DNA of 64,000 nt, from contig JAFSDN010000088.1 of the NCBI GenBank assembly GCA_017436245.1, positions 10,075 to 74,074 on the forward strand. Reading direction: 5' to 3'. Below, in pieces: positions 3-54,360 of the stretch. Source of the DNA: Clostridia bacterium. GTDB taxonomy: Bacteria; Bacillota; Clostridia; Monoglobales; Monoglobaceae. Both the position numbers and the translations under genes were made by a program. The notes under the pieces were generated by a model, which saw only the letters and a program-made list of their open reading frames with translations, was not told the origin of the DNA and did not search any database. Every line of letters starts with the position of its first letter. Position 1 is the stretch's first letter.

Positions 3-284
3 ATGCGTCGTAATATTGAGGTGTTCAGAACAAGGATTATTTCATTGCTCACTTCGCAGATGGATTTTGTCAAGGACTTCAATATGCCCGACAATGTGAA
101 AAGACGGGACATCAAGGTTGAGGTTCCCACAACTGTGCCGAGGACAACAGTTGATGAAGAATATGCAAACGGTGCAAAATCGACTCTTGAACGACTGGAG
201 CAGATGACTCAGGAGCTTCCTAAGATTGTTGTTAACGAAAAGGGAGAATATGTTGAGGCAAAGGAAGATGCTTCGGAGGGTTGA
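3..284 (+). CDS. C-terminal fragment of a DivIVA-like cell-division protein (5' end outside window)
   Basis: The ORF is open to the left edge of the window. The segment VFRTRIISLLTSQMDFV resembles the conserved FRTRFKMLIEAQLDLL helix of Bacillus DivIVA (recalled from memory). It sits upstream of lspA-rluD, as in many Firmicutes. Confidence 0.45.
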   Translation: MRRNIEVFRTRIISLLTSQMDFVKDFNMPDNVKRRDIKVEVPTTVPRTTVDEEYANGAKSTLERLEQMTQELPKIVVNEKGEYVEAKEDASEG

Positions 285-393
285 TGCTACATAACTCTTG
301 AGCAAAGAAAGTTTATATTTTATCTGACTGAGACAGCTTTGTGGATTTTCCGCAGGCTGTTTTCGGTAGATTTGGGTTTTTTCGGGAGAAGAT

Positions 394-867
394 ATGATTT
401 ATATTTGTTTGACAGTTATTATATTTGGTGTTGATATTGCAACAAAATTTCTGGCAAAAAACCATCTGGCAGGCTCACCGTCAATTCCGCTGATTGATGA
501 TGTTTTTCATCTGACTTATGTTGAAAACAGAGGTGCGGCATTTGGAATTTTGCAGGGCGGGCTGCCGTTTTTTATAATTGTTGCTGCTGTGATGGCGGTT
601 GTTGTTGTTTGGCTGCTCAGAACATATAAAATACGGCATCCGCTGATGAAGCTGGGTCTCAGCTTTTTGTGTTCGGGTGCTTTGGGCAACACCGTTGACA
701 GAATTATGCAGGGGTACGTGGTGGATTTTTTTGATTTCAGACTGATTGACTTCCCTGTGTTTAATGTTGCCGATATTTTTGTGTGTCTGGGTGCCGGATT
801 GCTGGCGGTATTTTTTGTTTTTTTTGATGATAAGGATAAAAAAAGAGGCTGTGAAAATGAAGATTAG
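394..867 (+). CDS. lspA: Lipoprotein signal peptidase (signal peptidase II)
   Basis: 157 aa and multi-TM. It carries the signal peptidase II motifs VENRGAAFG and FNVADIFVCLG. RBS GGGAGAAG lies upstream of the ATG. Confidence 0.9.
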   Translation: MIYICLTVIIFGVDIATKFLAKNHLAGSPSIPLIDDVFHLTYVENRGAAFGILQGGLPFFIIVAAVMAVVVVWLLRTYKIRHPLMKLGLSFLCSGALGNTVDRIMQGYVVDFFDFRLIDFPVFNVADIFVCLGAGLLAVFFVFFDDKDKKRGCENED

Positions 868-4455: not shown

Positions 4456-7295
4456 TTGAAAACAAATACAGTAAATACATTCACGTCAAGGGTGCAAGAG
4501 AGAACAATCTCAAGGGCATTGACGTGAAAATCCCCAGAGACAAGATGGTTGTGCTCACGGGGCTCAGCGGTTCGGGAAAGTCGTCCCTTGCCTTTGAGAC
4601 AATTTATGCCGAGGGTCAGAGGCGCTATGTGGAGTCATTGTCGGCATATGCACGTCAGTTTTTGGGTCAGATGGAAAAGCCCAATGTGGAATCCATTGAC
4701 GGACTTTCGCCTGCAATATCAATTGACCAGAAGACAACAAGCAAAAACCCACGTTCAACGGTGGGAACCGTTACTGAGGTTTATGACTATGTGCGCCTTT
4801 TGTTTGCAAGAATTGGTGTTCCACATTGTCCCAAGTGCGGAAAGGAAATTAAATCACAGAGCATTGACCAGATTGTGGACAGCGTGAAGGCTCTGCCCGA
4901 AAAAACAAAAATCCAGATTCTTGCCCCTGTTATCAGAGGCAGAAAGGGTGAATATACAAAGATTTTTGAAAAAGCCGCAAAGGACGGCTTTGTTCGTGTT
5001 CGTGTTGACGGCGAGATTTTTGACCCGTCGGCGGATGAAATCAAGCTGGACAAACAAAAAAAGCATAGTATTGAAATTGTTGTCGACCGTCTTGTTGTTC
5101 GTGAGGGAATGGACAAGCGCCTAACCGATTCCCTTGAAACAGCTTTGAAAATGGCAAACGGTCTTGTGGTTGTGCAGTTGATTGATGATGAACAGGAAAT
5201 GCTGTTCAGCCAGAATTATGCCTGCGATGACTGTGGAATTAATATTGAGGAGCTGACCCCAAGAATGTTCTCCTTCAACACGCCCTACGGTGCGTGCCCT
5301 CATTGTATGGGTCTGGGTGAGGTGGAGCTTCTTGATGTGGAAAGAATTGTTCCTGACAAGACAAAGAGCATAAATCAGGGGGCAATTGCCTGCTACGGCT
5401 GGACAGGAACCGACAAGGACAGCATTTCGGCAATGTATTACCGTGGCCTTTCAAAAAAATACGGGTTCAGTCTTGACACACCCTTTGAGGAGTTGCCCGA
5501 TGATATTGTGGACATTATCCTTTACGGAACAAAGGGCGAAAAGGTGCATCTCTCGTATGAAAAGACCTATGCAAGAGGCGAGCATTTTGCAAGGTTTGAG
5601 GGGATTGTCAACAATGTTCTGAGGCGTTATCAGGAAACCAATTCCGACTGGGCAAAGCGTGAGATTCAGGAGTTTATGAACACAACTCCCTGCCCTGAAT
5701 GTAAGGGAACACGTTTGAAAAAGGAAAGCCTTGCGGTTACGGTCAAGGACAGGAACATAAATGATGTGTGCAATCTGTCCATTGCGGAGGCAATGACCTT
5801 TTTTGAGGAAATGGAGCTGACCCAAAGAGAGGAGTTCATTGGCAAACAGATTTTGAAGGAAATCAAGGCACGACTTTCGTTTTTGGTTAGTGTTGGGCTT
5901 GAATATCTGACTCTTTCACGTTCAAGCGGAACACTTTCGGGCGGTGAAGCTCAGAGAATTCGTCTTGCCAGCCAGATTGGTTCGGGGCTTATGGGCGTGG
6001 TTTATATCCTTGACGAGCCAAGCATCGGTCTTCATCAGAGGGACAACCACAAGCTCATTGATATGCTGAAAAAGCTCCGTGACTTGGGTAATACACTTAT
6101 TGTGGTTGAGCACGATGAGGATACCATGCGTGCCGCTGACCATATTATTGACATTGGCCCCGGTGCGGGAATTCACGGCGGCTATGTTGTTGCGGAGGGT
6201 ACTGCAGAGGAAATTATGAAGTGCAAAGAGTCGGAAACGGGGCAGTATCTCAGCGGCCGGAAGTTTATACCTGTGCCCTTTGCAAGACGTCAGGGCAACG
6301 GCAGCTTTCTTCGGCTTGAAGGAGCGGCACAGAATAATCTGAAAAATGTTAATGTTGAAATTCCTCTGGGAACATTCACTTGCGTTACGGGTGTTTCGGG
6401 CAGCGGAAAAAGCTCTTTGGTTAATGAAGTGCTGTTTAAGATTCTTGCAAATGACCTGAACCGTGCAAAGCAAAAGCCCGGAAAATACAAAAAAATCAGC
6501 GGTCTTGAGAATCTTGACAAGGTGATTGACATTGACCAGTCACCAATCGGCAGAACGCCACGGTCAAATCCTGCAACCTATACAGGACTTTTTGGGGACA
6601 TAAGGAATCTCTTTGCATCAACGCCCGATGCAAAGTCCCGAGGCTACGGTGCCGGAAGATTCAGCTTTAATGTCAAGGGCGGCAGATGCGAATCCTGTCA
6701 GGGTGACGGAATAATCAAAATTGAAATGCACTTTTTGCCCGATATTTATATGCCCTGTGAGGTTTGTAACGGAAAGCGCTACAACCGTGAGACACTTGAG
6801 GTAAAGTTCAAGGGAAAGAGCATTGCGGATGTTCTTGACATGACCGTTGAGGAGGGAATGTACTTTTTTGAGAGCATTCCCAAAATTGCAAACCGCCTGA
6901 GAACACTTTATGAAGTGGGATTGGGATATATCAAAATCGGGCAGTCTTCAACCACCCTTTCGGGCGGTGAGGCACAGCGTGTCAAGCTGGCAACAGAACT
7001 GAGCAAGCGGAGCACCGGCAAGACAATTTATATCCTTGATGAACCCACAACAGGTCTTCACACGGCGGATGTTCATCGCCTCATTGAGGTTTTGCAGAGG
7101 CTTGTTGATTCGGGGAATACGGTTGTTGTAATTGAACATAATCTTGATGTTATTAAAACAGCGGACTATATAATTGACCTTGGCCCCGAGGGGGGCAACA
7201 AGGGCGGCACGGTTGTTGCCAAGGGTACTCCCGAAGATGTGGTGAAATGCAAGAAATCGTATACGGGAATGTATCTGAAGGACGTACTGAAGTAA
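4452..7295 (+). CDS. uvrA: Excinuclease ABC subunit A
   Basis: 947 aa. It has two ABC modules (GLSGSGKSS and GVSGSGKSS, with LSGGEAQR twice) and Cys4 zinc fingers. An ATGA overlap joins it to the uvrB stop. Confidence 0.97.
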
Positions 7296-7300
7296 CTTAA

Positions 7301-7446
7301 AAGGTTCTTTATCAAATGTTGGGGTTTAGTAAAAAAAGATGTTTCGACTACGCTCAACATGACCTTGTACCGGCAAGTTTTAGTCATTCTGAGCGCAGCG
7401 AAGAATCTTTACAAAGCATTTACCCCAACATTTGTTACAGAACCTT
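7301..7446. repeat. Nested imperfect foldback (palindromic) intergenic element
   Basis: The outer arms, 7301-7325 (aaggttctttatcaaatgttggggt) and 7422-7446 (accccaacatttgttacagaacctt), are reverse complements with a few mismatches. The inner arms, 7338-7363 and 7383-7407 (gtcattctgagcgcagcgaagaatc), are also imperfect reverse complements. The centre contains cttgtaccggcaag. Confidence 0.7.
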
Positions 7447-7454
7447 ATAAAAAG

Positions 7455-7482
7455 CAAAGCCCTGCAGAGTTGCAGGGCTTTG
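7455..7482. terminator. Bidirectional rho-independent terminator between convergent uvrA and the ABC exporter
   Basis: A perfect 12-bp stem caaagccctgca/tgcagggctttg with loop gagt, and T/A-rich flanks on both sides. Confidence 0.8.
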
Positions 7483-9793: not shown

Positions 9794-9816
9794 AATTTTC
9801 ACCTTTCTGACATTCG

Positions 9817-10004
9817 TTATAATTATTGTCGTGGAAACGGCAGAATGCCGTTTTAAGCGGAACACGCTCCGCAACTTTCAAGCATTTGTGCTTGAAAGCC
9901 GCGCATGATTGCAATAGTGTCGGTCTGTGAAAGCCACGGCTTTCACAGTGGTTTGCGATATATCGCAAACAAAAACGTAAATGCGTTTCACCGACTACTA
10001 TTAT
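9817..10004. repeat. 188-bp multi-hairpin intergenic element, copy A
   Basis: By eye it is roughly nine-tenths identical to 25380-25567 in the same orientation. It contains six consecutive hairpins, including aaacggca-gaa-tgccgttt, tttcaagca-tttg-tgcttgaaa, ctgtgaaagc-cacg-gctttcacag and gtttgcgata/tatcgcaaac. It abuts the stop codon of the upstream minus-strand gene. Confidence 0.9.
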
Positions 10005-16148: not shown

Positions 16149-16162
16149 TTATTTGATATGAA

Positions 16163-16307
16163 ATGACAGCAAATGCTTTGCTGTCATGAAAACTATTTCT
16201 CAAAATAGTTTTCGAAGACTTCGTTGCAATGAAGTGTCGGGAATTTGCTATGCAAATTCTTTGTCAAAACAGGGTTTTGACTCAGGAAAACATTAAAAAT
16301 GTTTTCC
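16163..16307. repeat. Array of tandem hairpins in the apbE 3' intergenic region
   Basis: There are five perfect hairpins back to back: 16163-16187 (11-bp stem), 16188-16213 (11 bp), 16241-16259 (8 bp), 16263-16281 (8 bp) and 16285-16307 (10 bp). One imperfect hairpin lies at 16217-16238. All loops are 3-4 nt. Confidence 0.85.
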
Positions 16308-16325
16308 CACACGGCACATTCATTA

Positions 16326-16354
16326 TTGACATTGGTGTGTAAAAACTGTATAAT
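16326..16354 (+). promoter_or_regulatory. Consensus sigma-A promoter
   Basis: TTGACA (16326-16331), an exact 17-nt spacer and TATAAT (16349-16354), 36 nt upstream of the 16390 start codon. Confidence 0.7.
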
Positions 16355-16389: not shown

Positions 16390-16896
16390 ATGGGATTTTT
16401 TTCTTTTTTATGGAACAATTTTTGGGGTAAAACAATTGTAACCTTTATTCTTTCCATGTCTCCGATACTGGAGTTGCGAGGCTCAATTGCATACGGTTTG
16501 GGTGCGGGACTGGACAGACGGTTTGTTTTTCTTGTTGCAATAATCGGGAACATAATTCCCGTTCCTTTTATTATCTTGTTTATCCGAAAAGTGTTTGAGT
16601 GGATGCGCAAGCACATGAAATGGCTTGGAGGCCTGGTTGAACGGCTTGAAGCAAAGGGCAATGACCCGAAAAATCAGGAAAAAATTAAAAAATACGGTTT
16701 TTGGGGCTTGCTTATGTTTGTTGCAATACCTCTCCCCGGCACGGGTGCGTGGACGGCGGCGTTGGTTGCGGCAATGCTTGGGATGCGGCTGAAGGATGCG
16801 GTTCCAGCCATTTGTATTGGTGTTATCAGTGCGGGAATTATTGTTACTGTGGCGTATTCGGGCATTTTGGGAGCTGTTGGCGAACTTTTGAAATAG
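16390..16896 (+). CDS. Small multidrug-export-like membrane protein (COG2426 family)
   Basis: 168 aa with 4-5 TM segments. The motif SPILELRGSIAYGLGAGL is characteristic of this family, as I recall it. Confidence 0.6.
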   Translation: MGFFSFLWNNFWGKTIVTFILSMSPILELRGSIAYGLGAGLDRRFVFLVAIIGNIIPVPFIILFIRKVFEWMRKHMKWLGGLVERLEAKGNDPKNQEKIKKYGFWGLLMFVAIPLPGTGAWTAALVAAMLGMRLKDAVPAICIGVISAGIIVTVAYSGILGAVGELLK

Positions 16897-24640: not shown

Positions 24641-25327
24641 CTATATTTTATTGAAAAATACTTCCATAACCCTCACAAGGTTCTTTGCGGCGGCGTCAAC
24701 AAATTCCGTGTAGGAAAGGTGCGAGCTGCCGTCTGCATTGTCGGAAACGGAGCGGAGAATACAGAAGGGGATATTGTTCTTATATGCAACGTGGCCGATT
24801 GATGCGGCTTCCATTTCGCAGGCATATGCACCAAAGGTATCAACCAGATATTTCTTTTTTTCTGCACTGTTGATAAACTGGTCGCCCGAAACAATCTTTC
24901 CCGTAAGGGTGTGAATTCCGTTTTCTGCCGATGCAGATGCAAGTTTGGCGGAAAGAAGCTCATCTGACGGAATATCAACCATGTTGATTCCCGAAATAAA
25001 ACCCACGGGGTCGCCTAAGGGCGATGTGTCCATGTCGTGCTGAATTACAGACGTTGCAACCACAACATCACAAATGTTCAGTGACTTTTCAAGACCGCCT
25101 GCAACACCGCTGTTAATTATAAAATCGGGGTTGTATTTCAGGCACATGGTTTGTGTGCATATTGCCGCATTAACCTTGCCCACACCGCTGACTGCAACAA
25201 CAGCGGGCTTTCCCCACAAATTTCCGCTGACAAATTCCGTTCCGCTTACCGTTTCTGTACTTTTGTCAGTCATCAGCTCTTTAAAACTGTTGACCTCTAT
25301 GTCCATTGCTCCGATAATTCCTACCAT
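24641..25327 (-). CDS. mtnN: 5'-methylthioadenosine/S-adenosylhomocysteine nucleosidase
   Basis: The start was set at ATG 25327 (MVGIIGAMDIEV), after RBS AAGGAGA. The longer ORF start lies inside the repeat element. The protein carries the typical Pfs motifs GVGKVNAA, SGDQF and CEMEAASIGHVA. Confidence 0.88.
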   Translation of the reverse strand: MVGIIGAMDIEVNSFKELMTDKSTETVSGTEFVSGNLWGKPAVVAVSGVGKVNAAICTQTMCLKYNPDFIINSGVAGGLEKSLNICDVVVATSVIQHDMDTSPLGDPVGFISGINMVDIPSDELLSAKLASASAENGIHTLTGKIVSGDQFINSAEKKKYLVDTFGAYACEMEAASIGHVAYKNNIPFCILRSVSDNADGSSHLSYTEFVDAAAKNLVRVMEVFFNKI

Positions 25328-25379: not shown

Positions 25380-25567
25380 TTATAATCATTGTCGTGGAAA
25401 CGGCAAAATGCCGTTTTAAGCGGAACGCGTTCCGCAACTTTCAAGCTGTCGGCTTGAAAGCCACGCATGATTGCAATAGTGTCGGTCTTTGAAAACCATA
25501 GTTTTCAAAGGAGTTTGCGATGTATCGCAAACAAAAAACGCAAATGCGTTTCACCGACTACTATTAT
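25380..25567. repeat. 188-bp multi-hairpin intergenic element, copy B
   Basis: Same length, orientation and hairpin order as 9817-10004. The stem differences are compensatory (ctttgaaaac-cata-gttttcaaag versus ctgtgaaagc-cacg-gctttcacag). Confidence 0.9.
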
Positions 25568-25799
25568 AGCAAAAAATACATCCCAAAGTCAACAATTTTA
25601 CCAATTTTCAGCAAAGTGTTCTGTTGTCATAAGCTCCGAAATTGATACAATTTCGCAAAAGTCAAAATTTTTGACGAAACAATGGGGGTTCGAAAAGTGT
25701 GCAATGAACCAAATAAAGTCTTTTTTGCTGCAAATTAAGTTTTGTATAACAAAAAACTGTCTGTAATAGAATACGAGGGGTTCAGATTGAGACATCTTT

Positions 25800-38173: not shown

Positions 38174-38190
38174 GTGTTAAGATTTAAAAG

Positions 38191-38330
38191 GACTACCCCT
38201 CAGTCACCTTGCGGTGACAGCTCCCCTGACAAGGGGAGCCGGGAGGACTTACGGTGTTTCAGCTTGCCTCCCCTTGTAAGGGGAGGTGGGTTGCGGAGCA
38301 ACTCGGAGGGTCTTGACGTAACTGAGGGAG
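38191..38330. repeat. GC-rich multi-stem intergenic element
   Basis: An outer 8-bp pairing, ccctcagt (38196-38203) with actgaggg (38321-38328), encloses four hairpins. These are gtcacc-ttgc-ggtgac (38203-38218), gctcccct-gaca-aggggagc (38220-38239), cctcccct-tgta-aggggagg (38267-38286) and gttgc-gga-gcaac (38290-38302). Confidence 0.7.
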
Positions 38331-38396
38331 TTCGCAATAAATAAGCAAAAAAATAAAATAAATATAAAAATTTTATACAAAAAGGAGTAGAAATTT

Positions 38397-40094
38397 ATGA
38401 AAAAACGTATTATTTCTCTAACCCTGACACTTTTGATGGTGTGCAGCTTGTTCACCATCGCACCCGTATCTGCGGCTGCTGGTGTAACGGCAACCTTGCC
38501 TGACGGCACAGTTGTTGAAAACTTCACCAAGGATTACAGCAGACACAACAATGTTCTCAATTTCTCCTTTGAAAAGAACATTGACACTGAAGAGCTTTCG
38601 AACGAAAGCGTAACCGTAAACGGCGTTGCTGCGGCAAAGGTAATTGCCACAGGAAATAACTCCATTCAGGTTGACATGGGAACACTCAGAAACATCACAC
38701 GTTACCGTGTTGAATTCCCCGGTGTTCTGGACATGGAATGGAATCCTGTTGGCGGACAGTTTGTGTTCACAACCGGAACAGGCGTTATCCGCGGAATGGA
38801 ATTCACATGGGATTCTATGCCAATAAATCCTGCCTATAATACGGTTGACTACGGTATTGAATCCTGTGAGCATAATAAGGCTGACGGAACAGTTACCTTT
38901 AAAACAACAAAAGGAACATGGGGAACTTTGTTTGAAACATATGTTAACGCATTTGGCGAAAATATTGCAACAAATGACATCAAGCAGATTGTTATGCGTG
39001 CGAAGACAAACGTTACGGGTAACTTCTATACTTACTTTGTTCTGGGCGACAAGACATATGTTACAGGCGACCATGACAGAGAGGTTCGTGCAGGTTGGAC
39101 AATTCAGGCAAGTGATGAATATCAGGAATATATCCTTGATGCAAGTGCTTTGAATCAGGAGGTTTGGCCCAATCAGACCTTAAATCTTATAAGAATGCAG
39201 ATGCCCGAAAATGCAACGGTTGACATTGACTACATCAGACTTGTTACTTATGATTATGAAACAAACGGCTATCTTGCAGACTGGGATTTCACCAACTTCC
39301 AGAACCCGATAGGCTTGGGTACTGTTAAAAACAGCAATGTACCTGAAGGTATACTGAGAGAAGACGGTATTTATTTTGAAGCAGCAACATGGGGCGGCCC
39401 CATTGGTACTGCAAACGCATATCAGATGAATATCAATCCTGTAACCGTTGCTAAGTTTGAATATCATGCACTTGATACATTCGGTATTGAAAATCTGGGA
39501 ATATATATTGTGAGAGCCGGTGAATTGACAGCTCCGCCTCCTGTTAACGAAAATCAGCGCTTCCAGCTTCAGCAGTTGGGCGGTGGCGGAAACTGGCACA
39601 CTTATAATCTGACACCTGAACACGCAACATACCCCAACAATGACTGTAACTGGCTGTTCTTCTTTACAAATAAAGTACCGGATATGCCGGCATGGGATTT
39701 TCTTATCAAGTACATAAAGATGTACCCCGAAAACTGGGTTGAAAATCCTGTGAATGTTCCTGTTACAACATATGAGCTTGTGAGCGGATTTGAAACAGCA
39801 GATGAAGCTGTACTTTCAGGAAGCGTTCCTGCAGGCAGTGTAACAGCAGTTACAGGCGGTTTCTATAACACCGATTCTGCAAAAAAGGATGTAACATTAG
39901 TTGTTGCGCTTTACAAGGATAATGCACTTGTAGACGTAAAAATGAACAAACAGTCAATCACGGGTCATGGATACCTCTCTCAGCTTGACGCAACAGTTGA
40001 AGTACCCGACGAGGGTTATGAGGTTAAGGCATTCCTCTGGGACGGCGCAACACCCATGTATGATGTACTTACAAAGGACAACAGCAGTTTGTAA
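38397..40094 (+). CDS. Secreted protein, paralog of the C-terminal third of the 43737-48332 product
   Basis: 565 aa with signal peptide ..TIAPVSA/AAG. It is colinear, with no indels detectable by eye, with the last ~533 aa of the 1531-aa protein. It contains an Ig-like segment (VTVNG...RYRVEFPG), the W...VDIDYIRLVTY module, a second variant module and a C-terminal Ig-like domain (VTLVVALYKDNALVDVKM...VKAFLWDG). Confidence 0.8.
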   Translation: MKKRIISLTLTLLMVCSLFTIAPVSAAAGVTATLPDGTVVENFTKDYSRHNNVLNFSFEKNIDTEELSNESVTVNGVAAAKVIATGNNSIQVDMGTLRNITRYRVEFPGVLDMEWNPVGGQFVFTTGTGVIRGMEFTWDSMPINPAYNTVDYGIESCEHNKADGTVTFKTTKGTWGTLFETYVNAFGENIATNDIKQIVMRAKTNVTGNFYTYFVLGDKTYVTGDHDREVRAGWTIQASDEYQEYILDASALNQEVWPNQTLNLIRMQMPENATVDIDYIRLVTYDYETNGYLADWDFTNFQNPIGLGTVKNSNVPEGILREDGIYFEAATWGGPIGTANAYQMNINPVTVAKFEYHALDTFGIENLGIYIVRAGELTAPPPVNENQRFQLQQLGGGGNWHTYNLTPEHATYPNNDCNWLFFFTNKVPDMPAWDFLIKYIKMYPENWVENPVNVPVTTYELVSGFETADEAVLSGSVPAGSVTAVTGGFYNTDSAKKDVTLVVALYKDNALVDVKMNKQSITGHGYLSQLDATVEVPDEGYEVKAFLWDGATPMYDVLTKDNSSL

Positions 40095-43736: not shown

Positions 43737-46700
43737 ATGAAAAAATTCGTTGCACTTTGCTTACTAATATCAATGTTCGCCTGCTTTTTGCCAATGAATG
43801 TGGCGGCTGATGTGGACGATGACCCTTGTGCCAAAACCTTTCTGGATACCTCCATGCTTGTGAATCAGGCTGACAAAAACGGTAATACTGTTATTTCGGG
43901 CTGGGACCTTAACACGGCAGGGGGAACAATTCATCCAAGAGCCTTTTTGCAGATGGTTGACACAAGCACAGAGTTCCCTGTTGAGGCTGTTCGTGCAATA
44001 GATGATATTGAATGTGGCGAGGTTACTTTTGAATTTTATGTTTATCTGGACAAAAGTATGCCGGGGCTTTCCATTCGTCTTGCAAAAGGTTTTTCAAAAC
44101 AGATGTCATTTGATTTTGAAGCGGAAGGACTGTATTTATCGGGCAACAATGGTGAACGGGTCTTTGTTGCTGAAACGCCAATAGGTTCTTTGTTTGGGGT
44201 GAAAGCCATTGTTGATATGGACAACGGCTGCGCAACTGTGTATGTGGACGGAATACGTGCGGTGACGGATGCTCCGATTTCGGTGGGTACTATTAATAAG
44301 GTTATTGTGAGCACAGGTGCGGAAACGGTTGGTGCTTTTATACTGCAGACAATCCGTATTTATCGGGGTTATGCATTGAACGAGTTTTTTACCGCAAATA
44401 ACGGTCAGTTCCCTTCGGAATGGGATATTGATGTACCCTCGGGAGTAATTGCAAAGCCTGCTCTTGACTCAACAAGCGGCGACATAACTCTGTCAAAGAG
44501 CTTTGACCCGCAAAGGGGAAATCTTGTTTTTGAATTTCAGACACGTCTGCCAAAAAAGCGGAGCGGTGTTTCATTTACGCTGAAAAACGGAAGTGATTCG
44601 GTGCTTTCGTTAAAAGCCAAAGAAAACGGATTTTATTTTGGAGATTCTATATTTTTAGGTGCGTACAAAGAGGATATATGGCAGCATTTCAGAGTGAAAA
44701 TTGATACGGAATCAGGAAATGCCGATATACAGATAAACGGTAAGCTTGTGAAAGAAAATGTCAGTATTCCAAAGAACAAAGCGGTTGACTCCTTTGAAAT
44801 ATATGTTGCCAAGGCAACAAACGGAAAGGTTTTTGCAACAGACTTTTTGCTGTATGAGGAGGAAATACCCGCTGATTATCCATCATCGCCCGTAAAGGCT
44901 GATTCGGAGGGGGTTGCAGTTGGTGTTCAGACCTGTCCTTTGTGGACTGAAGGACGGCATGTTGGCTGGGACTGGATTAATTCTGCCGAGCCAAGGATTC
45001 CGCTGCTGGGCTTTTATGACGAGTCATCACCTGAGGCGGTTGACTGGCAAATGAAGTATATGGCAGAGCACGGCATTGACTTTCAGTGGTGCTGTTGGTT
45101 TATGCCGGGCACACCGGGAAATCCCATAAAGGATATTGATGCGTCAAGATATTTGCACAACGGTTATTTTAATGCAAGGTATTCGGATGCTGTGAAGTTT
45201 GCAATCATGTGGGAAAATGCAGGAACGTACACATGGACGACCGACCCTGCATATAACCGCGAAATGTTCCTCAAGCACATTGCTCCCTTCTGGATTGAAT
45301 ATTATTTCAAGGATTCGCGGTATTTCAAGTCGGGCGGACATCCCATTGTGGGTATATACAGCTATGATAAGTTTATGACAGCCTTCAAGGACAGCACAAG
45401 CGGTTATTCGGAAATACTCAGTATGATGAATGAGTTCAAGCAGATGTGCGTTGATGCAGGTGTTGGCGCTCCCTTTGTGGTTTTGCAGGAATATCCCATT
45501 GCCTCTGACTTCGGCAACGAGGGAGCACATTATGCAAAACGGAATCAAATGGGCTTTGACGGGTTTTATACATATGGTTATAACACAAGCTGCTGGACTG
45601 AACGTCAAAAAGAGGCTCACCTGATGGGACGGGACAATGCATCGCAGCTGCGGTTTATTCCCACCTATCACAGCGGCTTTGACACAAAGGCATGGGACGG
45701 AGCTTCGGGCATAACGCTGACACCACAGCAGTTTGAAGACCTGCTCCGTGACGGCAAGGAGAACTTTTTGCCAACGTTGTCCTATACGAATCTTGACGAA
45801 CCCATTGTTATGCTGGCATCCTGGGACGAGCATGGCGAAGGTCACGCAATTATGCCAAACAAGGGATACGGTTTTGGGTATCTTGATGCGGTGAAAAATG
45901 TTTTTGCACCCGGTGAGCATACCCATGCAGAGCCAACAGAACAACAAAAGGAACGTATTTCCACGGCATATCCCACAGGACGCAAGGTGCCTTTGCGTGA
46001 GAAAATCACAGACCTTGGAGACGAGCAGAATCATACAGTTGTAAAGGGGTGGTATTTTGATTCGGACTCGGAGGGGTGGACAGGCGCTTCTTGGGAAAAT
46101 GGTTGCCTGAAAGCCACATCGACCATTGGGTTAAATAATGCAGATGTGGAAGCAATTGATGCGGATTACATTCGCTTCAAAGTGAAAAACCAATCCGATT
46201 CGTACTCGGCAACATTTACATACACAACTAACTTTTCTGAAAATAACAGCTCAAGGATGATATATATTGGCGGAAAAAGCTCTGATTTCACAGAAATATC
46301 GGTGCCTGTTTCAAAGCACGCTGACGATTGGCGGGGCAATATAGAAAAACTTAATGTTGTATTTAACGGTATTGGTGATGGGCAATGCGTGCTTATAGAT
46401 TCGATTGAATTTTTGAAAACATCACAAAATGGCAATATGATTGGTGTTGACGGTGTTTGGCTGGAAAGCGGCCTGATTCAAAGGCACGAAAAAAAATATC
46501 TGCCATTTGCGGAAGCTAAAAGTCTTTTTGGATTCAAGCATTACATAACCGAGGACGGAACATTTTGCTTTGAGGGCAAAAACGCTGTGGGAAAAGAAGC
46601 CCTTGCGGAAAGTGAGGCATTATTTGAGAACGAGGGGATTTTGTACTTGAGTGAAGATGTGTTTATGTCGCTGACTGATGAAAAGCCGCTGTTTCAGTTG

Positions 46701-48332
46701 GATTTAACCAATTTGGAAGCAGGGGGAGCATATCTGCCCGACGGCACGCAGATTGAGAATTTTGCAAAGAATTACAGCCGACACAACAATGTTCTTATCT
46801 TTGCATTTGACCAAAATTTAGATGGCCAATCCTTTGAACCTCAAAGTGTGACATTGAACGGTTCACCTGTTGCTTCGGTTGAGGCTTTTGGAAATAACGG
46901 AATCAAGGTTGATTTGGGTGTGCTTTCAAACATCACACGTTACCGTGTTGAATTCCCCGGGATTAAAACGGCTGATTTTGAACCAGTGGGCGGACAGTTT
47001 GTGTTCACAACAGGAACGGGTATTGTTGGAGGAATGGAATTTACAAACAACACTTCTCCGTTGAATTCTGCTTATATGACAGGCGATTACGGTATTGAAT
47101 CATGTGAACACAATGCCGCAAACGGAACAATAACAATAAAAACAACAAAAGGTACATATGGCACAGCAATTCAGACATATGCCAATGCCTTTGGCAAAAA
47201 AATTCCCACAAATGATATTAAGCAGATTATTATGCGTGCAAAAACAAATGTGACAGGAAACTTCTATACATATTTTATGCTTGATGACAAGGAAATCCCT
47301 GTGGGAAACAACGACCGGGAGGTTCGGGCAGGCTGGACAATTCAGGCAAGTGACGAGTATCAGGAATATATCCTTGATGCAAGTGCTTTGAATCAGAGTG
47401 TATGGCAGGACAAAGCGTTGAATGTAATCAGAATGCAGCTTCCTGAAAACGCAACGGTTGACATTGACTACATCAGATTGGTTACCTATGACTACGAAAC
47501 AAAGGGCTATCTTGCAGACTGGGATTTCACAAATAAGCAGAATCCAATTGGCTTGGGAACAATCAGAAATGTGAATGTTCCTGAACCGGAATTGAGAGAT
47601 GACGGTATATATTTTGAAGCCGCAACATGGGGCGGACCAATGGGAATTGCCAATGGAAATCAAATGCTTTTCAATCCTTCAAGCATAGGAAAGTTCGAGT
47701 ATACTGCGCTGGATACTTACGGCATAGAAAACTTTGGAATATATCTTTTGAAAAGAGGAGATATAATAACACCGCCGAGTGTTTCTGTGAATGAGCGTTT
47801 TCAGCTGCAACAGCTATCGGGTGGCGGCAGATGGAACACATACACTCTCACACCCGAACATGAAGAATACCCAAACAATGACTGCAACTGGTTGTTTTTC
47901 TTTACAAACAGAAAGTCCGGTCAGACCTACTGGGATTTCCTTCTTCAGGACATAAAGATTTATCCCATAAACTGGGTTGAAAATCCTGTGAACGTTCCTG
48001 TGGCAACATATGAGCTTGTGAGCGGATTTGAAACCGTGGACGAGGCTGTTCTTGACGGATGTGTGCCTATGGGTGACGTGACAGCAGTTGCAGGCGGATT
48101 TTATAACACAGGCTCAGCACCCAAGGACGTAACTTTGGTTGTTGCTCTTTACAAGGACAATGCCCTTGTGGACGTCAAAATGAATAAGCAGACAATCATG
48201 GGCAAGGGCTATCTTTCTCAGCTTGATGTAACCATAACCGTGCCCGGCGAGGGCTATGGGGTGAAGGCGTTCCTTTGGGACGGTGCAATGCCTATGTGTG
48301 ACGTGCTTACAAAGGACAACAGCAGTTTGTAA
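43737..48332 (+). CDS. Giant secreted multidomain protein with a WbsX/GH99-like TIM-barrel domain (paralog of the 34106-38173 product, with an extra C-terminal block)
   Basis: 1531 aa with signal peptide ..PMNVAA/D. The N-terminal region is colinear with the 34106 protein (ISGWDLNTAGGT versus YSGWDLNRIGGES). The central domain, about nt 44910-45910, has CPLWTEGRHVGWDW...GFYDESSPE...EHGIDFQWCCWF...ASWDEHGEGHAI...GFGYLDAV. Next come a W-x-G module (WRGNIEKLNVVF..VLIDSIEFLK), a stalk-like segment and a C-terminal ~533 aa duplicated from or to 38397-40094. Confidence 0.75.
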   Translation: MKKFVALCLLISMFACFLPMNVAADVDDDPCAKTFLDTSMLVNQADKNGNTVISGWDLNTAGGTIHPRAFLQMVDTSTEFPVEAVRAIDDIECGEVTFEFYVYLDKSMPGLSIRLAKGFSKQMSFDFEAEGLYLSGNNGERVFVAETPIGSLFGVKAIVDMDNGCATVYVDGIRAVTDAPISVGTINKVIVSTGAETVGAFILQTIRIYRGYALNEFFTANNGQFPSEWDIDVPSGVIAKPALDSTSGDITLSKSFDPQRGNLVFEFQTRLPKKRSGVSFTLKNGSDSVLSLKAKENGFYFGDSIFLGAYKEDIWQHFRVKIDTESGNADIQINGKLVKENVSIPKNKAVDSFEIYVAKATNGKVFATDFLLYEEEIPADYPSSPVKADSEGVAVGVQTCPLWTEGRHVGWDWINSAEPRIPLLGFYDESSPEAVDWQMKYMAEHGIDFQWCCWFMPGTPGNPIKDIDASRYLHNGYFNARYSDAVKFAIMWENAGTYTWTTDPAYNREMFLKHIAPFWIEYYFKDSRYFKSGGHPIVGIYSYDKFMTAFKDSTSGYSEILSMMNEFKQMCVDAGVGAPFVVLQEYPIASDFGNEGAHYAKRNQMGFDGFYTYGYNTSCWTERQKEAHLMGRDNASQLRFIPTYHSGFDTKAWDGASGITLTPQQFEDLLRDGKENFLPTLSYTNLDEPIVMLASWDEHGEGHAIMPNKGYGFGYLDAVKNVFAPGEHTHAEPTEQQKERISTAYPTGRKVPLREKITDLGDEQNHTVVKGWYFDSDSEGWTGASWENGCLKATSTIGLNNADVEAIDADYIRFKVKNQSDSYSATFTYTTNFSENNSSRMIYIGGKSSDFTEISVPVSKHADDWRGNIEKLNVVFNGIGDGQCVLIDSIEFLKTSQNGNMIGVDGVWLESGLIQRHEKKYLPFAEAKSLFGFKHYITEDGTFCFEGKNAVGKEALAESEALFENEGILYLSEDVFMSLTDEKPLFQLDLTNLEAGGAYLPDGTQIENFAKNYSRHNNVLIFAFDQNLDGQSFEPQSVTLNGSPVASVEAFGNNGIKVDLGVLSNITRYRVEFPGIKTADFEPVGGQFVFTTGTGIVGGMEFTNNTSPLNSAYMTGDYGIESCEHNAANGTITIKTTKGTYGTAIQTYANAFGKKIPTNDIKQIIMRAKTNVTGNFYTYFMLDDKEIPVGNNDREVRAGWTIQASDEYQEYILDASALNQSVWQDKALNVIRMQLPENATVDIDYIRLVTYDYETKGYLADWDFTNKQNPIGLGTIRNVNVPEPELRDDGIYFEAATWGGPMGIANGNQMLFNPSSIGKFEYTALDTYGIENFGIYLLKRGDIITPPSVSVNERFQLQQLSGGGRWNTYTLTPEHEEYPNNDCNWLFFFTNRKSGQTYWDFLLQDIKIYPINWVENPVNVPVATYELVSGFETVDEAVLDGCVPMGDVTAVAGGFYNTGSAPKDVTLVVALYKDNALVDVKMNKQTIMGKGYLSQLDVTITVPGEGYGVKAFLWDGAMPMCDVLTKDNSSL

Positions 48333-53535: not shown

Positions 53536-53572
53536 GCTAAAATATTAAATTACATAATTTGAGGTGAAATGA

Positions 53573-54331
53573 ATGTTGTTGCAGGCAATTGATATGCATA
53601 TGCACATCAATCACGGAAGTATATACGATACACAGGTCAGTGAAGTGTATACCGCCGACCTTGATGAGCTCAGAAAAATAAGCAAGGGTACAGGGATTGA
53701 AAAAATGTTCTGTTCAACCTTTGCATCGGTTATCACCAACGAGGCAATTGAACAGGAAAATGAGTATCTGATGAATATTGTCAAATCCACAGACGACCTT
53801 TATTAGTGGGTTGTTATTGACCCCAGATGCGACGGAACCTTTGAACAGGCAAGGAAAATATTAAAGTCAGGGAAGTGTGTGGGTATAAAGCTACATCCCT
53901 ATATGCACAAATATGACCTCATGGAGTTTGGCGACAAAATATTTTCCTTTGCTGCAGAGCTTGAGACAATTGTGTTGACGCATCCGATGACCGAGTTTTT
54001 GACTGACTGAAAAATTCTGACTTTTGCGGATAAATATCCTGAAATGACCTTAATTATTGCTCATCTGGGGAGCAAAGAATTTGTTGATGCGGTTGAATTT
54101 GCAAAGCATGGAAATGTTTATACCGATACGTCGGGAATTGCAAGCTCAAATAATAAAATAATTGAGTATGCGGTGAACCGCATCGGTTCTGAGAAAATTC
54201 TCTTTGGTACAGATACATATTCTGCGGCGTTTCAGCGGGGAAGAATTGAATTTGCTTTGATTTCCGAGGAAGACAAGGCGAATATTCTCAGATATAATGC
54301 AGAGAGGCTTTTTGGTAAGGTTTTGAAATAA
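53573..54331 (+). pseudogene. Amidohydrolase-2 (PF04909-like, TIM-barrel metal hydrolase) gene interrupted by two in-frame stop codons
   Basis: A single reading frame runs from the metal motif IDMHMHINHG to ...TLIIAHLG...FGTDT...LRYNAERLF. It is broken only by TAG at 53804-53806 and TGA at 54008-54010, and has no frameshift. Confidence 0.7.
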
Positions 54332-54360
54332 ATAGAATTAAAAAAGGAGAATCAATTATT

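Follow-up and report, generated by a model that had tools for sequence, protein, structure and literature searches.

What is the strongly folding intergenic element that stands twice in a 64-kb stretch of DNA (the window: the whole 64,000 nucleotides analysed) from a Clostridia bacterium, and why is its fold kept? We conclude that it is most probably (probability about 0.72) a small (~186 nt), non-coding and non-autonomous mobile element of the MITE or BOX kind. An earlier note on this DNA had reported two 188-nt copies on the same strand, at 9817–10004 and 25380–25567; coordinates, length and orientation were all correct, and its estimate of about 20 differences between the copies agreed with our count of 20 (18 substitutions and one single-base indel each way; 89.4% identity). 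Alignment with further copies showed that the conserved unit begins at ATAAT (9819 and 25382) and that the two T's before it are flank. The element, which we call family 1, is 186 nt long with A/T-rich ends (ATAAT...ATTAT), and is placed in the window as follows:

9819–10004, plus strand: family-1 copy A, from ATAAT to ATTAT, 207 bits with covariance model R1
25382–25567, plus strand: family-1 copy B, 219 bits with covariance model R1
24641–25327, minus strand: mtnN, neighbour of copy B
9908–9915, no strand: central palindrome ATTGCAAT, the dyad centre, whose TTGCAAT core is common to a second family (family 2)

The ends that bound the element (AATCATTGTCG... and ...CGACTACTATT) carry imperfect terminal inverted repeats, ATAATCATTGTCGTGG and ATAATAGTAGTCGGTG (11/16 matches by eye), as had been noticed before. 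Each arm is a diverged, inverted copy of the other, with 63 of 96 positions identical, and the family-1 covariance model also matches the opposite strand of every family-1 copy over its full length (68–84 bits). Copy A separates two DUF4330 genes of the same orientation and is antisense to both, and copy B lies antisense between a histidine-kinase gene and mtnN, 54 nt upstream of the latter. No reading frame is open in both copies. The idea of frequent mis-annotation as a hypothetical protein was dropped: the public contigs of the same species that were retrieved have no gene call across the element, and its translated frames found no match among 5.8 billion proteins.

How does the element fold? 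In MFE folds, each arm forms a closing stem with three hairpins, and the whole element consists of two three-hairpin domains. In copy A these are:

9820–9911, plus strand: domain 1, closed by a stem of 9820–9834 with 9899–9911
9835–9853, 9857–9872 and 9875–9898, plus strand: hairpins 1–3, enclosed by the domain 1 closing stem
9913–10002, plus strand: domain 2, closed by a stem of 9913–9924 with 9990–10002
9925–9948, 9951–9970 and 9973–9988, plus strand: hairpins 4–6, enclosed by the domain 2 closing stem

Copies A and B reach an MFE of about −80 to −82 kcal/mol, whereas dinucleotide shuffles stay at about −43 to −46. On the plus strand the two copies have z-scores of −9.9 and −9.5, on the minus strand −8.7 and −10.3, and none of 200 shuffles folded as well. 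Family 1 folds far beyond chance. A consensus of 12 sequences computed with RNAalifold recovered all six hairpins along with the second closing stem; the first closing stem was absent from this consensus and is therefore less certain. Hairpin 1 is almost identical to hairpin 6 (AAACGGCA..TGCCGTTT and AAACGCA..TGCGTTT) and each lies about 16 nt from an end. The tetranucleotide GTAG occurs in the reverse complement of the family-1 3′ end (ATAATAGTAGTCGG), and is absent at the other end and in family 2.

Is the structure itself constrained? The differences that the earlier note had read in the hairpins are all present: in hairpin 4, CTGTGAAAGC-CACG-GCTTTCACAG in copy A stands against CTTTGAAAAC-CATA-GTTTTCAAAG in copy B, with both partners changed in two pairs; hairpin 2 reads GCGGAACACGCTCCGC in one copy and GCGGAACGCGTTCCGC in the other; and hairpin 3 has the same stem in both copies around a different loop. 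For copies A and B alone, the two compensated pairs are modestly unlikely (P ~0.03 by simulation). The stronger signal is the asymmetry between stems and loops: substitutions affect 8 of 144 paired columns as against 10 of 45 unpaired columns (Fisher p = 0.0014), and are about four times denser in loops than in stems. In a structure alignment of family 1 (12 sequences, 72 pairs), 98.4% of the 730 pair cells are paired, a figure that falls to 35–41% when the partners are slid by 1–3 columns. Four pairs carry double-sided changes, one position of hairpin 4 shows three pair types, and covariation scores 0.049, where shuffles score 0.031 ± 0.003. In family 2, with 58 pairs in three sequences, the picture is alike: 97.1% of cells are paired and three pairs are compensated. 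This covariation comes from few independent events (about five in family 1 and three in family 2), variation in the closing stems is one-sided only, and in two variants of the same species (L016 and L017), SNPs in hairpin 5 disrupt pairs without compensation. Where a palindrome is perfect, hairpin-templated repair can also produce compensated changes, without selection. Taken together, pairing, compensation and the stem/loop counts show that the stems are constrained and that the fold is conserved more strongly than the sequence. The proposal of selection on structure thus holds insofar as the fold is kept beyond sequence identity, with a small number of independent events behind it.

Which molecule folds is a separate matter. 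One-sided changes to G·U and to A·C number about 6 and 4–5 in family 1, and 3 and 1 in family 2, where the equivalent orientation is the opposite one, so that there is no overall bias. As G·U is about as frequent as A·C on either strand, the counts name neither an RNA strand nor DNA. The element had been presented as an RNA or single-stranded DNA structure; the fold is constrained, RNA and DNA are not told apart, and the element is foremost a mobile interspersed repeat.

Copies are indeed dispersed, which the earlier note had proposed to count. The central 19-mer, searched in one genome per species, occurred in three metagenome-assembled genomes (MAGs). The Oscillospiraceae MAG SIG451 has one complete copy and six contigs that end inside the element; these half-copies overlap by about 55 nt, as happens when an assembler breaks on a repeat, which argues for at least four copies. 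The Clostridia MAGs SGB_7029 and HGM11511 have two copies and one copy, respectively. The flanks in these MAGs are unlike those in the window, and the sites are non-orthologous. The copy number looks low, with two copies in ~81 kb of the source genome and no further copy in the ~17-kb extension of it. Copies lie in an operon spacer, in a 5′ UTR and directly after stop codons, and their orientation to neighbouring genes is variable: both window copies are antisense, and sense copies occur directly after the infB stop codon (L007) and 43 nt upstream of a permease gene (L011). The flanking genes (DUF4330, mtnN, infB, the permease gene and pnuC) are functionally unrelated. A gene-specific cis-regulatory RNA would keep one position and orientation upstream of genes with related functions, which was not observed.

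Empty and interrupted sites point to movement. All same-species contigs have copy A. In a relative (L024) that is 88–90% identical over ~1.3 kb of flank holding two genes, the copy A site is empty: the gap between the two DUF4330 genes measures 16 nt there as against 211 nt in the window. Relatives in which the flanking protein is 58–71% identical have gaps of 48–55 nt and no element. In SIG451, the DNA to the left of one broken copy (L001) encodes positions 2–57 of the PF04973 (PnuC) profile, and the DNA to the right of another broken copy (L009) encodes positions 63–175. When the two flanks were joined with 2 nt, they gave one uninterrupted 101.5-bit match to positions 2–175, which places the element inside the pnuC reading frame. 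Family-2 copies are 87–94% identical between genomes whose syntenic genes are 64–84% identical, and their sites differ from genome to genome. On this comparative evidence, the element is mobile now or was so recently. Two further features were seen around the split pnuC of L001. The gene (117–500, minus strand) has an apparent frameshift near its start, with the ATG out of frame in a CAAAACAAAACCCC run, which may be an assembly error because the SIG451 MAG has only 2x coverage; and upstream of it lies a structured leader, about 90 nt long, without an Rfam match.

What does the element insert into? Each of three independently reconstructed pre-insertion sites has a single AT preceded by T. The pnuC target, ...CCCATAGCT-AT-GATGTCGG..., is dictated by the reading frame. 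At the family-2 site, relatives read GATTAT directly followed by TGACAAG, with TTGACA as the −35 box, and the window reads TGATTAT, then the element (16153–16326), then TGACAT. For copy B, removal of the element and one AT leaves, on the minus strand, TTGACT, 18 nt and TGCTATAAT, which together make an extended −10 promoter, close to consensus, 5′ of mtnN. Excision of this kind would probably restore the same mtnN promoter that is now present at the distal junction:

25563–25592, minus strand: promoter-like TTGACT-18-TGcTATAAT, 11/12 matches with the TG present, its −10 box completed by the element's ATTAT

Of 12 sites, ten have T at position −1 and six have A at position +1. The target preference is symmetric, T-AT-A, without a conserved one-sided target, and we rejected a one-sided target of the IS200/IS605 type on the grounds that none is conserved at the flanks. 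The AT (or TAT) is present once in the three reconstructed targets and at both junctions after insertion. Since the junction AT is invariant, a duplication of 2 bp (or of 3 bp, TAT) looks the same as recombination of a terminal dinucleotide of the element with a target AT. Duplication of TA, as by mariner and IS630 elements, was rejected, for it breaks the pnuC frame and gives a poor mtnN promoter. The pnuC target is near-palindromic (arms matching at 11/15 positions by eye, with the insertion point off-centre) and resembles the element's own centre at 12/15 positions (GCTATGATGTCGGTC and GCAATAGTGTCGGTC).

The copy A junction bears the trace of an additional event:

9809–9820, plus strand: 10-nt solo family-2-type terminus GACATTCGTT plus AT, abutting the 5′ end of copy A and absent in L024

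This GACATTCGTT-AT is the reverse complement of ATAACGAATGTC. The 11 extra nucleotides beside copy A are a family-2-type end, and copy A therefore adjoins an old end; the empty-site comparison for copy A needs this second event, a solo family-2 end, to account for them. The A/T-rich ends can, to judge from the junctions, rebuild a hexamer that insertion interrupts, as in the mtnN −10 box and in the −35 box at 16326–16331.

What is family 2? The members that we placed are:

16153–16326, plus strand: 5′-truncated family-2 element at GATT-AT-TGACA, just upstream of a −35 box
531–737 of L001 and 1106–1313 of L021: full-length family-2 copies

The window copy adjoins the promoter (−35 box 16326–16331) of the gene at 16390–16896, and the L021 copy, at a non-orthologous site, is 87% identical to it. 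Full-length family 2 folds at −89.7 kcal/mol (z = −12.8) on the plan of family 1, in two domains of a closing stem and three hairpins each, with different hairpin sequences. A covariance model built from family 1 alone fits family 2 over its whole length, all eight helices included, with scores of 53.6 and 38.5 bits in the two orientations. The families have little sequence in common beyond UAUAAU.A.UG ... UUAU at the ends, AUUGCAA at the centre and the GUC/GAC of the closing stems; as DNA, the ends read ATAAY...ATTAT and the centre TTGCAAT. One hairpin core, GCGATATATCGC, recurs in both families, and the first and last hairpins of family 2 are unrelated to those of family 1.

Other repeats and structured stretches were noted in passing. 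A third multi-hairpin element (L006 187–365, z = −6.7) is closed by AATGAAG...CTTCATT stems, has a GCAATGAAGTG motif resembling the family-2 centre, and lies 45 nt downstream of a tRNA gene (71–142). In the window, the ~150-nt intergenic element at 7297–7450, between the convergent uvrA and ABC-transporter genes, is bounded by a ~25-bp inverted repeat (AAGGTTCTTTATCAAATGTTGGGGT ... ACCCCAACATTTGTTACAGAACCTT) and resembles a MITE of another kind; beyond it, at about 7458–7482, lies a strong terminator hairpin. The most stable local fold of the window (38180–38335, −65.7 kcal/mol per 120 nt, no Rfam match) is a G+C-rich hairpin cluster (e.g., CTCCCCTGACAAGGGGAG and CCTCCCCTTGTAAGGGGAGG) upstream of the gene that starts at 38397. 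That 565-aa gene (38397–40094) is linked to the C-terminal part of a 1531-aa gene (43737–48332) by a diverged ~1.5-kb duplication (38497–39992 and 46735–48230, 74–80% identity, with the offset steady at 8238 nt). Between copy B and the histidine-kinase gene, a non-coding stretch of ~60–80 nt (25646–25726, minus strand; ...GACTTTATTTG..CACACTTT.CGAACCCCCATTGTTTCG...) is conserved at 79% identity in L005 of SIG451 (5646–5726), again with no Rfam match. The region 53536–54360 is an apparent amidohydrolase (PF04909) pseudogene with in-frame stops, which public gene calls give as fragments of 77 and 95 aa.

Does the element belong to a known family? As the earlier note had proposed, Rfam was searched; it returned no match at gathering score for the window and seven loci, no tRNA or other family at that score anywhere in the 64 kb, and at a permissive E-value only short chance matches (best E-values 0.9–6). 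Blastn found no match among plasmids and phages. A scan of JGI metagenomes with the 3′-end pattern gave one match (L012), a chance one inside a GC-rich ORF, and a scan of viral contigs gave five chance 17-mers in coding sequence and nothing real. We found no description of the element in Rfam or in the literature searched. Among the loci examined, neither solo ends attached to an ORF, as an autonomous partner would have, nor a transposase partner or matching IS ends were found, and no integron integrase is present among the called genes of the region. Like a MITE, the element is shorter than 300 bp and non-coding, with A/T-rich ends and terminal inverted repeats, and it occurs in multiple dispersed copies that are present in some genomes and absent from the same site in others. 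It lacks what defines several other classes: there are six different hairpins where REP/BIME/REPIN sequences have one repeated 20–40 bp palindrome with a GTAG/CGTC tag, its inverted repeats and symmetric T-AT-A target do not fit the PATEs of IS200/IS605, and its closing stems are without the R″/R′ core (RYYYAAC ... GTTRRRY) of attC sites. As far as these data show, the superfamily is confined to a few uncultured gut Oscillospiraceae/Clostridia.

What is the mechanism of its spread? In the mobile-element reading that we prefer, a transposase or recombinase acting in trans would insert the element at A/T-rich T-AT-(A) sites, among them the surroundings of stop codons, promoter hexamers (−10 and −35) and, in one case, a coding sequence. 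Such sites are common near stop codons and in promoter hexamers. AT (possibly TAT) would remain on both sides, and insertion may sometimes occur beside the end of a related element. The fold could be kept for either of two reasons: (i) the transposition machinery may read folded DNA; or (ii) the element may be transcribed in either direction in operons and 5′ UTRs, where copies with compact hairpins would be tolerated by, or useful to, the host. We find the second somewhat more likely. The mobile-element account as a whole overlaps with a reading of different emphasis, in which function comes first and mobility second: a cis-acting RNA module (a stabiliser, processing site, attenuator or insulator) that serves the host and is occasionally transposed. 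Such a module would form whichever way it is transcribed, given that the fold is equally strong on both strands; its locations between the genes of an operon, in a 5′ UTR and just behind stop codons suit it, as do a cross-genome identity (87–94%) above that of the neighbouring genes and one weak terminator-like hairpin on the minus strand of copy B, and BOX, ERIC and Correia repeats are reported to act in this way (PMC3049150). We nevertheless regard it as only tentatively possible, for its position and orientation to genes are inconsistent, one copy destroys pnuC, G·U is in excess on neither strand, and neither copy has more terminator-like sites (none at copy A, one at copy B) than shuffled sequences would give. 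A free-standing small RNA gene, or a cis-regulatory leader tied to particular genes (riboswitch, T-box or protein-binding leader), would likewise be strongly structured and intergenic, and copy B does lie in the mtnN 5′ region; unrelated flanking genes, both orientations, empty orthologous sites and the lack of any Rfam match make this extremely unlikely. The search for a conserved internal promoter or terminator also failed, as the −35 boxes lie in the flanks and the single terminator-like site is weak.

Could the hairpins instead be read as single-stranded DNA? In REP/BIME/REPIN-like systems, palindromes act as folded single-stranded DNA on which a single-copy domesticated HUH tyrosine transposase (RAYT) works, and the clustered palindromes and dyad recall REPINs, as does GTAG in the reverse complement of the 3′ end; a clear long target duplication is absent, as expected. 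We consider such a system quite improbable, because the six hairpins differ from one another instead of repeating one 20–40 bp REP, the copy number is low, GTAG is missing at the other end and in family 2, and the AT reconstructed at both junctions is not a RAYT signature. The missing long duplication would also suit an IS200/IS605-type PATE that moves as single-stranded DNA, with the near-identical hairpins 1 and 6, each ~16 nt from an end, as its recognition hairpins. Yet the first and last hairpins of family 2 are unrelated to these, the terminal inverted repeats and dyad symmetry are lacking in IS200/IS605 ends, and the symmetric T-AT-A target stands in place of 4–5 nt conserved on one flank only, so that a PATE seems very improbable. 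There is a bolder reading, in which the fold and not the sequence is what is inherited, either through structure-specific or site-mimicking recombination or as a mobile structured RNA module with its own function. The element has two four-way junctions (a closing stem and three hairpins each) around the TTGCAAT centre; the two families have all eight helices and almost no hairpin sequence in common; the unit boundaries look like recombination sites, with apparent inverted half-sites (..CCGAC / GTCGG..) around AT; and with its 12/15 matches the pnuC target imitates a boundary inside the element. In loose analogy to attC, an unknown recombinase might read the folded DNA or the boundary-like sites. 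We judge this reading unlikely. A mobile element of the MITE or BOX kind remains our preferred account.

How does such an element compare with repeats already described? The bcr1 repeat of the Bacillus cereus group is a Firmicute-specific repeat of ~150 nt with a conserved predicted fold, reported compensatory changes and signs of mobility; it duplicates TTTAT and occurs in cultured Bacilli. The present element is likewise a Firmicute repeat with a conserved fold, compensation and signs of mobility, but it differs in fold and sequence, and its host belongs to the Oscillospiraceae and not to the Bacilli. REP/BIME/REPIN sequences with their RAYT are also extragenic palindrome clusters with a dyad arrangement and conserved hairpins; here, in contrast, heterogeneous hairpins form a defined 186-nt unit with terminal repeats and a low copy number. 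IS30 makes a 2–3 bp repeat, prefers near-palindromic hot spots and inserts next to inverted-repeat ends (PMC9333248). The AT at both junctions, possibly a 2-bp direct repeat, the near-palindromic pnuC target and the end/2-bp/end junction at 9809–9820 recall it. In the present element every junction dinucleotide is AT, insertion into the pnuC palindrome was off-centre, and neither an IS30-type transposase nor matching IS ends were found in the loci examined, so that IS30 may serve as a lead, by a likeness in behaviour only.

The closest comparison is with pneumococcal BOX (boxA-boxB(n)-boxC; Croucher et al. 2011, PMC3049150). [quoted passage not shown] BOX and the RUP, Correia, ERIC and Nezha repeats are, like the present element, short and non-coding with A/T-rich ends. 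Further BOX-like features are terminal inverted repeats that pair and close a tight fold around internal hairpins, interspersion in intergenic regions and operons with transcription alongside the neighbours, and proposed mobilisation in trans within a narrow clade (PMC3049150), all of which the element shares, with transcription and mobilisation in trans as predicted features. The resemblance is one of architecture (PMC3049150), with no apparent sequence similarity, and sequence identity with BOX is implausible because of the host clade and the sequence itself. The differences are as plain. The present element is a dyad of two closed three-hairpin domains, whereas BOX has one stem with repeated boxB units; unlike in BOX, its six hairpins differ from one another, a sister family has the same architecture with other hairpin sequences, and only AT is found at the junctions. 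BOX has more than 100 copies (PMC3049150), and the copy number here looks much lower.

The kind of element is well known, and what is unusual is the double three-hairpin dyad and the existence of two families that exchange hairpin sequences but keep the architecture. Only if the structure-specific recombination reading were true would this be a new class of biology. These elements add a previously undescribed repeat superfamily for uncultured gut Oscillospiraceae, and as they break MAG assemblies they are a useful marker of fragmentation. By inserting into promoters, operon spacers and genes, they are plausible modifiers of gene expression in these bacteria. They also offer an unusually clean case of an architecture that is kept while its hairpin sequences are replaced, which bears on why interspersed bacterial repeats conserve structure.
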